A stretch of 64,000 bases of DNA, taken from contig JAFVUF010000012.1 in NCBI GenBank assembly GCA_017502875.1, positions 168,952 to 232,951 of the forward strand. Direction: 5' to 3'. The stretch is from Clostridia bacterium (GTDB lineage: Bacteria > Bacillota > Clostridia > Oscillospirales > CAG-272). A program made the translations under genes and the position numbers. The number at the start of each line of letters is the position of its first letter. Positions within the stretch are counted from its first letter, which is position 1. This document shows positions 39,529 to 40,866 of the stretch, one piece after another. The notes under the pieces were generated by a model that ran no database searches, was not told the origin of the DNA, and saw only the letters and a list, made by a program, of their open reading frames with translations.

Positions 39529-40866
39529 ATGCAAAACATTACCGAATACGTAAACGGACTCTGCGCCGAGGTCAAAACGGCGCAAAAGGCTCTTGCGCTC
39601 GCAAAAGCAAGCGAAAAAAACGGCGCGCTCCTGAAAATCGCCGAGGCGCTCAGAGAAAGCAAAGCCGAGATACTTAAAGCAAATGAGCAGGACATATCCT
39701 CAGCCTCGGAAAACGGCGTTCCGAAAACAATGATTGACCGACTGACCTTAACCGAGGCGAGAATTGACGCCATTGCTGACTCGCTTCTTGACGTGGCGGC
39801 TCTGCCCGACCCTTGCGGAAACGGCTCTGTTTCAGTCCGTCCAAACGGACTGAAAATAACAAAAACGAGTGTTCCGCTAGGCGTTATCGGTATCATTTAC
39901 GAGGCTCGCCCCAACGTTACGGTTGACGCCGCGGCGCTCTGCCTCAAAAGCGGAAACGGCGCCGTTTTGAAGGGCGGCAAGGAGGCGCTTAACACCAACC
40001 GCGCGCTTATGAGCGTTATGAAAAGGGCGCTTAATCGCACCCGTATTCCGCCAAACGCCATTTCTCTCATCGACAGCGCTGAACGCACGGCAACCGCGGC
40101 GCTTATGAACGCCAGAGGTTTGATTGACGTGCTTATCCCCAGAGGCGGCAAGGGTCTTATCAAGGCGGTAGTGGAAAACGCCGCCGTTCCGGTCATTGAG
40201 ACGGGAGCCGGCAACTGCCATATCTATATCGACGAAAGCGCCGATCTAAAAAAAGCGCTCGCTGTCGCGGTAAACGCAAAAATGTCTCGTCCCTCGGTCT
40301 GCAACGCCGTTGAGACTATGCTCGTTCACGAAGCCGTAGCGGAGAAATTTTTGCCTATGTTCGCAAGGGAAACCGAGGGCAAGCTTGAAATTCGCGGCTG
40401 CAAAAAGACCGTTTCAATTATTAGAGGTTCGATGGAAGTATCGTACAGGGCACCCACATTAGCTGAAAATTCACTACAAACGCCGTCTGTAGCGGTGTCG
40501 CCGTTGCGACAGGGTGCGATAGAAGCCACCGAGCAGGACTACGACACCGAGTTTAACGACTACGTTTTGGCGGTCAGGGTTGTTTGCTCGCTTGACGAGG
40601 CTATCGAGCATATCAGACGCTATTCAACGGGACACAGCGAGGCAATAATTACCGAAAATATTGCTTGTGCGCGTAAGTTCACCGAAAGCATAGACTGCGC
40701 GGCGGTCTACGTCAACGCCTCCACCCGCTTTACCGACGGAGGTGAATTCGGCTTTGGCGCCGAGATAGGCATTTCCACCCAGAAGCTTCACGCCCGCGGA
40801 CCTATGGGTCTAAGCGAGCTTACCACCGTCAAATATATCGTCGAGGGCGACGGTCAAATACGGTGA
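39529..40866 (+). CDS. proA: Glutamate-5-semialdehyde dehydrogenase (gamma-glutamyl phosphate reductase)
   Basis: 445 aa; ProA-like throughout (catalytic region [15 protein letters not shown]); carries a ~29-aa extra segment between ..EIRGC.. and [10 protein letters not shown]. Confidence 0.92.
   Translation: [445 protein letters not shown]
40426..40519 (-). repeat. Family-C intragenic element, reverse orientation, in-frame inside proA
   Basis: Reverse complement reads TCGCACCC TGTCGCAACGGCGACACCGCTACAGACGGCGTTTGTAGTGAATTTTCAGCTAATG..CCATCGAACC, colinear with the mnmG/ftsK copies over the first ~65 nt. Confidence 0.75.

Follow-up and report, generated by a model that had tools for sequence, protein, structure and literature searches.

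Homology on the opposite strand between 29 extra codons of a clostridial proA and 87-nt units in mnmG and ftsK

The proA gene (gamma-glutamyl phosphate reductase) of a Clostridia bacterium, carried on a 64,000-nucleotide (nt) stretch of contig JAFVUF010000012.1 (assembly GCA_017502875.1; here called the window), contains 29 codons that are missing from the proA genes of its relatives and that are homologous, on the opposite strand, to a repeat unit in mnmG and ftsK. This leads us to propose, as the probable though by no means assured explanation, that the proA segment is a reversed copy of a small lineage-specific 87-bp family, that it was placed by a motif or short homology and that it is tolerated as a loop. 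The gene and its insert are as follows, with positions counted along the window.

39529-40866, + strand: proA, 445 residues, the host gene (open reading frame; homologues with PF00171; PDB match 1O20)
40426-40512, - strand: inserted unit in proA, 87 nt or 29 codons, reversed relative to the mnmG and ftsK units (empty-site relatives and reverse-strand homology)

The proA insertion, its homology and its empty sites

The initial annotation of this DNA, which was made from the sequence alone, had counted about 29 extra residues in ProA and had placed the unit at 40426-40519. Both statements were essentially right: an alignment of 12 sequences displays a single clean gap of exactly 29 columns, just after ..KKTVSII, in every homologue but one (P0001), and the exact insertion is 40426-40512. 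An equally good placement at 40439-40525 exists because 13-nt direct repeats flank the insertion. P0001 is a ProA of 445 residues, 98% identical to the window protein and its best match in 5.8 billion proteins. Beyond it, the listed ProA homologues are 412-423 residues long and at most 83% identical outside the insert, and the insertion is missing from 119 of the 119 others listed; one of these (P0075) reaches 444 residues because of an N-terminal extension. The solved ProA structures also lack the insertion, the best PDB match being the T. maritima enzyme (1O20; E=2e-128), in which the residues equivalent to 298-330 of the query fall between chain residues 308 and 311.

Colinearity of the reverse complement with the mnmG and ftsK units over about 65 nt had been proposed, and a formal test finds the reverse-strand alignment significant. 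The mnmG unit matches the window on the minus strand at 40519-40454 by blastn (66 nt, 75.8% identity, E=2.7e-8); the corresponding match of the ftsK unit to the insert is weaker (71 nt, 67.6%, E=0.31), and the mnmG and ftsK units match each other over 97 nt with 82.5% identity (E=1.7e-23). The reverse-complemented insert aligns to mnmG with a Smith-Waterman score of 52, a value reached by none of 5000 dinucleotide shuffles (15.6 +/- 2.2, maximum 34); a same-strand alignment to the units was rejected as noise (score 18 vs 52 reversed). The three-way alignment of proA, mnmG and ftsK is gap-free over the shared unit, and TTTTCAGCTAWTG occurs in three copies in the window (ftsK, proA minus strand and mnmG) compared with 0.28 expected. 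The colinearity is good over about 72 nt only: identity of the insert to mnmG is 72% in the first 72 nt and 42% in the last 36 nt, the final third.

These results bear on the idea that ProA had this segment ancestrally and relatives lost it, or that it is a domain insertion unrelated as DNA, an assembly artefact or a chance resemblance. Nothing beyond prior probability speaks for it, and the absence of the segment from the 119 homologues and the solved structures, the reverse-strand E value and shuffling result, and the occurrence of the same insert in independent NCBI, ENA and JGI assemblies leave it hardly credible. The mnmG and ftsK units share 79% of their nucleotides and 56% of their residues, the proportions of nonsynonymous and synonymous differences between them are 0.23 (pN) and 0.17 (pS), and the differences are spread over the three codon positions as 7/8/8. 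Since pN is at least equal to pS and the spread is even, the units are related as DNA, with no constraint at the peptide level.

Each full unit consists of a 15-nt motif R, a 72-nt core and a second R, the motif reading GYTTCWATCGCACCC on the element strand. Perfect matches to it lie at 21366-21380 in gyrA, 40512-40526 in proA and 49571-49585 in mnmG, where the unit edges are TTCCGTCGCACCC and TTCAATCGCACCC at a spacing of exactly 87 nt. The parts of the proA unit and the remaining units are listed here.

40426-40438, + strand: left flanking direct-repeat copy in proA, GGTTCGATGGAAG (reverse complement CTTCCATCGAACC), 87 nt from the right copy, with which it agrees at 11 of 13 positions
40513-40525, + strand: right flanking direct-repeat copy in proA, GGTGCGATAGAAG, 11/13 identical to the left copy
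40512-40526, - strand: right end-motif copy in proA, GCTTCTATCGCACCC, with zero mismatches to GYTTCWATCGCACCC, encoding GAIEA
40496-40511, - strand: short hairpin TGTCGC-AACG-GCGACA in the proA unit, in register with GTCGT-AGCG-ACGAC of other units
49484-49585, + strand: mnmG unit, encoding RSVAPGRSDDTDNYDVSTDFSAIEDIQKNVSIAP (end motif 49484-49498, 72-nt core, end motif 49571-49585)
33051-33152, + strand: ftsK-linker unit b, whose end motifs (33051-33065 and 33138-33152) have diverged (87-nt spacing; blastn, nhmmer)
32997-33025, + strand: ftsK-linker unit a, partial and upstream of b, beginning GGTCGTAGCGACGACACCG (blastn, nhmmer)
21357-21432, - strand: shortened unit that makes up the C-terminal tail of GyrA, its end motif a perfect match at 21366-21380 (nhmmer E=0.009)

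The leading TCGCACCC, initially described as part of the colinear unit, is indeed present; it belongs to the direct repeat of 13-15 nt that flanks each unit at 87-nt spacing. Copies of R are more alike between loci (best identity 13-14/15) than are the two copies within one locus (11/15). The right motif copy of proA is 14/15 identical both to the gyrA motif and to the unoccupied proA site of a relative (L008), and the right flank, which encodes GAIEA, reads as ancestral proA sequence.

Orthologues confirm a lineage-specific, in-frame insertion at the DNA level, as had been suggested; the segment is not shared by relatives. In three loci of the P0002 species (L001-L003; 83% amino-acid identity) the empty site reads ..ATC ACA GGC TTA ATG GAA GCC ACC.., and in the syntenic locus of the P0007 species (L008) it reads ..GTT ACG GGT GCG ATC GAA GCC ACC... 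The minus strand of the latter, GCTTCGATCGCACCC, is identical to the gyrA R at 14 of 15 positions and to the right R of mnmG at 13 of 15, neither of which derives from proA. Two R-like sites are present in the 21-kb L008 locus compared with 0.09 expected, and one lies exactly at the insertion point. The R-like minus strand of the L008 empty site thus indicates that the ancestral proA target already carried R there.

The peptide frames of the units differ with orientation. MnmG, FtsK and GyrA read the unit in the forward frame (GRSDDTDNY..FSAIED..SIAP), and a second forward frame is likewise open in all copies. The claim that the element is open in both orientations did not hold: in the reverse frame that proA uses, the mnmG unit contains two stops and the ftsK unit one. 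Only the proA copy is open there, and it may be a variant that happens to be open in this frame or one selected for openness. The hairpin has a stem of 5-6 bp and is in register in all copies, as had been noted, and the covariation reported for it comes down to a single compensatory change (T-A to C-G), from which selection on structure can hardly be argued. The units are not palindromic by their RNA-fold z-scores (-0.92 and -1.70 for the plus and minus strands of proA, -0.06 for mnmG and -0.35 for ftsK), none of the three full loci (proA, mnmG and ftsK) contains an inverted repeat of at least 8 nt, and the unit has no match in Rfam.

Several other candidate explanations were set aside. An intein, an intron or translational bypass is ruled out, the insert being 29 codons, in frame and stop-free; a diversity-generating retroelement was dropped, since by eye the aligned units display no adenine-specific mismatch pattern; and a 10-mer common to the unit and the intergenic D7 repeat (GTCGCAACGG) is within chance by our own estimate.

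Host proteins and occurrence in the lineage

All members of the 90% identity cluster of ProA carry the insert: the window protein itself (five contigs, NCBI and ENA), P0001, and P0122 and P0123, which come from JGI assemblies. One member has a single P-to-S change. The insert is fixed in the species, in that all sampled strains have it. Between the window and strain L004, 28 of the 1338 nt of proA differ, 21 of the changes being synonymous and seven nonsynonymous, a ratio that indicates purifying selection on the gene, which is therefore functional.

An AlphaFold2 (AF2) model of the window ProA (62-sequence alignment; mean predicted local distance difference test score, pLDDT, 81.6) places residues 306-327 in a coil with pLDDT below 50, between a helix (292-305) and a strand (330-332), while the remainder superposes on 1O20 with TM scores of 0.81-0.87. 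The insert is therefore probably a disordered surface loop, in line with the surface-loop position that had been anticipated for it. In the same model the most conserved C-terminal segment, residues 390-426 (~40696-40806), also has pLDDT below 50, probably an artefact of a monomer model built on a shallow alignment and not a feature of the gene.

An adaptive role, in which the addition would serve ProA as an interaction or regulatory loop or act through mRNA structure and be kept by selection, appears quite improbable. Fixation of a nearly identical insert in all sampled strains, the purifying selection on proA and the somewhat better folding of the proA copy than of other units (z = -1.7 on the minus strand) could be read in its favour. 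The strains are only 2% diverged, however, so that near-identity among them carries little information; moreover, the segment is predicted to be disordered, the sister units lack peptide-level constraint, the fold z-scores are not significant and Rfam holds no match.

The MnmG unit also occupies a loop, mapping between residues 251 and 257 of E. coli GidA. The segment of ~33+7 residues is missing from MnmG in the nearest GTDB genomes (L006, 84% identity; L005, 79%), so that the mnmG insertion, too, is specific to the lineage. The 665-residue product from the ATG at 48791 agrees with the gene call in public assemblies; the mechanical reading frame begins at a TTG 25 codons upstream (48716-48790), and the longer product is absent from the protein collection. 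A few kb separate the end of the window from the origin region with dnaA-dnaN / rnpA-yidC-jag-mnmE (mnmE 60272-61687, - strand; L014 1-7290), and the mnmG-rsmG-parAB block is oriented towards the origin and not away from it, which suggests a local inversion.

The disordered FtsK linker (32997-33152) is strongly variable in the species, and strains that share 98% identity in ProA share only 88% in FtsK. One FtsK (P0126) lacks exactly the 22 residues between two 19-nt GGTCGTAGCGACGRCACCG repeats of the linker, and the linker of strain L004 (L004 3150-3353) contains a rearranged unit and a 42-nt tandem duplication (TPNGVSSEIP twice). Both cases indicate that short direct repeats within units recombine in this lineage. 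In a relative (L008 1879-5484) the FtsK linker has no 87-nt unit and carries a long (TVAPTA)n tandem repeat in the same position.

The four host loci, proA, mnmG, ftsK and gyrA, are all coding and lie within 28 kb. Units were sought in ~81 kb of this genome, comprising the window and its flanks, where nhmmer found no intergenic copy; nhmmer and six-frame phmmer found none in the 17 kb flanking the window on same-species contigs (L010 and L014), nor in relatives L005-L009. A DNA pattern (CACCG-N6-ACG-N3-TTT-N9-TTTCANCTANTG) had no match in GTDB representative genomes and JGI metagenomes, in which the genome of the window is apparently absent or masked. The single match (L018) of a second pattern was rejected as a high-GC chance match. 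No plasmid or phage match was obtained by blastn of the units, and a profile of the forward-frame peptide against 5.8 billion proteins gave 13 candidates that share words with it, none with E <= 10. A query of the open frames joined by GGGG linkers returned the ProA P0001 and a GyrA fragment; glycine-rich candidates crowded its list, which has no bearing on family size.

Other repeats are common around these genes. The window is dense in intergenic families of 35-220 nt, in both orientations and many with GC-rich hairpins such as GCCTCCAGGCGCTTGCCTGGCG (at 3343-3650, 8078-8310, 19071-19466, 28665-29125, 59757-60278, 63818-64000 and elsewhere), which have no sequence relationship to the 87-nt coding unit. 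A terminator-like hairpin repeat (GCGCTTTCTTGCAAGAAAGCTGCGCAAAGAAC) lies at 40885-40939, directly downstream of the proA stop codon (40866); it belongs to family D8, whose five copies include others starting at 15, 15017, 35075 and 48455.

This distribution is relevant to a further explanation, that of a selfish small element mobilised in trans, a Firmicute analogue of the Rickettsia palindromic elements (RPEs) or of miniature inverted-repeat transposable elements (MITEs), present in many copies and inserting in either orientation, of which the stop-free, in-frame cases survive. Structured enzymes have received lineage-specific insertions independently at least twice (proA and mnmG), which, together with the ftsK and gyrA copies, would fit such an element, as would the high density suggested by four loci in 28 kb, a length that is a multiple of three with two forward frames open in all copies, and flanking direct repeats that could be target-site duplications; in-frame repeat insertions are, moreover, documented (PMC3184786). 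Yet the unit is non-palindromic (z from -0.06 to -1.7) and without inverted repeats of at least 8 nt, it has no intergenic copy in the ~81 kb despite the abundance of other intergenic repeats, the same motif flanks every locus and pre-exists at the empty proA site, and the other units contain stops in the reverse frame. The pattern scans of GTDB representatives and JGI metagenomes and the plasmid and phage searches were also empty, and the peptide-word search brought only the 13 candidates. On balance we consider this explanation unlikely, though deserving of some weight.

A possible origin of the insertion

The explanation that we favour, a reversed copy placed by motif R, can be set out as follows. 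The ancestral proA would have encoded G-A-I-E-A as GGGTGCGATMGAAGC, which is motif R on the minus strand, and one core and a second R would have been added at that site. One possible route is copy-choice or short-homology recombination with R at both switches, by which core and R would have been copied from an existing unit; another is a motif-specific insertion that would have duplicated a target of 13-15 bp. The orientation of R at the target would have dictated the reversed orientation of the insert. The enzyme would have tolerated the insert because its length is a multiple of three, it is free of stops in the proA frame and its site is a surface loop, and it would have gone to fixation in the species, as a disordered loop of 29 residues without a function of its own. 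The R-core-R architecture, the R at the empty site, the matching orientation and the lack of inverted repeats and palindromy argue for such a motif-directed insertion and not for classical MITE or RPE transposition.

Several points weigh against this proposal. The proA copy shares only 72% identity with the best known unit and can barely be aligned in its final third, and the ~81 kb yielded no donor. Four host loci in 28 kb would be odd as a whole family and hint at many more copies, as of an active element; family size, intergenic copies and the existence of a closer donor are judged from the ~81 kb. A homology of 15 nt is short for recombination of the RecA type, a simple break-repair model would not by itself yield R-core-R, and the second R may be either a target-site duplication or donor-derived, both of which would fit the data. 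R would be needed for insertion but is not sufficient, since unoccupied R-like sites exist. One of them, CGTTCAATCGCACCC at 18775-18789 on the plus strand (13/15), lies inside a putative recX-like open reading frame on the minus strand (18297-18899); here too the motif arises from G-A-I-E codons read on the other strand, and the site may be a potential target. The second is at 20187-20201 of L008. Finally, no clear resemblance to R is seen at the empty mnmG sites of those relatives that are available, which are more distant.

We also entertain, with no more conviction than the selfish element, a mobile and frame-preserving coding cassette of a kind not yet described. This would be a non-palindromic 29-codon unit of uncultured gut or rumen Clostridia that integrates at a recognised 15-bp motif, the motif setting its orientation.

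Relation to known elements and significance

RPEs are palindromic sequences of ~100 bp that form large families in coding and non-coding DNA (Ogata et al. 2000, summarised in PMC3184786). The proA and mnmG units resemble them in being short, inside protein genes, frame-preserving, lineage-specific and accommodated in fold-compatible loops. They differ in that the unit is non-palindromic, that its copies are seen only in coding DNA, at four loci in ~81 kb, and that it has 15-nt terminal direct repeats, one motif copy pre-existing at the target. The initial description of the segment as an RPE-like in-frame coloniser is thus apt for its frame, lineage specificity and loop position, but not for its lack of a palindrome and of inverted repeats or for the R already present at the target.

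MITE-type and other small mobile repeats, such as the small mobile sequences of enterobacteria and the BOX, RUP and SPRITE repeats of pneumococci, are mainly intergenic; they have terminal inverted repeats or strong stem-loops, and their short target duplications differ in sequence from one locus to the next (PMC3184786, PMC2229807). As in MITE-type repeats, repeat DNA here supplies translated peptide, internally or at the 3' end (the GyrA tail); in contrast to them, the unit lacks terminal inverted repeats and strong stem-loops, and its flanks of 13-15 nt are the same motif at all loci. The case therefore shares the outcome of RPE- and MITE-like insertions and fails their palindromy and terminal inverted repeats; what is new is the R-core-R architecture and an empty site that bears the motif at the insertion point.

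PARCEL units, of 25 amphipathic residues, form long tandem arrays in surface or membrane proteins and are encoded by DNA of dyad symmetry (PMC2996958). The present units are likewise coding DNA that shuffles within genomes, but they are single, acidic, disordered segments of 29 codons in housekeeping enzymes and have no dyad symmetry. Repetitive extragenic palindromes and bacterial interspersed mosaic elements (REP/BIME), which are mobilised by RAYT, are GC-rich imperfect palindromes of 20-40 bp outside genes, whereas this unit is 87 nt long, inside genes and has a hairpin of only 5-6 bp. Bypass elements (T4 gene 60 and the mitochondrial byps) break the frame or carry a stop and are skipped between matching take-off and landing codons; the proA insert, at 87 nt, in frame and stop-free, has nothing that would require bypass.

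Classical slippage duplicates adjacent sequence. Here, by contrast, the core is inverted and would have been copied from another gene, at a distance of 7-19 kb or more. Nor is the insert an intragenic tandem repeat of the variable-number (VNTR) type, only the 13-nt flank being duplicated locally and the 74-nt interior being homologous to the units of other genes. It resembles short-homology rearrangements, for which short-range template switching offers a comparison (PMC7954356), in being bounded by short direct repeats of which one pre-existed, and repeat-mediated indels occur in the sister strains.

In-frame colonisation of essential genes by repeats is documented mainly for the RPEs of Rickettsia and for a few MITE-like elements; here it is found in one free-living lineage of gut Clostridia, and an empty site carrying the end motif constitutes rare direct evidence on the choice of site and orientation. 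If the coding-cassette reading were true, the unit would be a mechanistically distinct analogue of RPEs that colonises proA, mnmG, gyrA and ftsK. If the family is large, it would represent a new, motif-directed route by which proteins gain disordered loops. If it is small, the proA segment would be a clean natural case of ectopic insertion guided by short homology, in which a conserved enzyme has acquired a new peptide from the antisense strand of a repeat.

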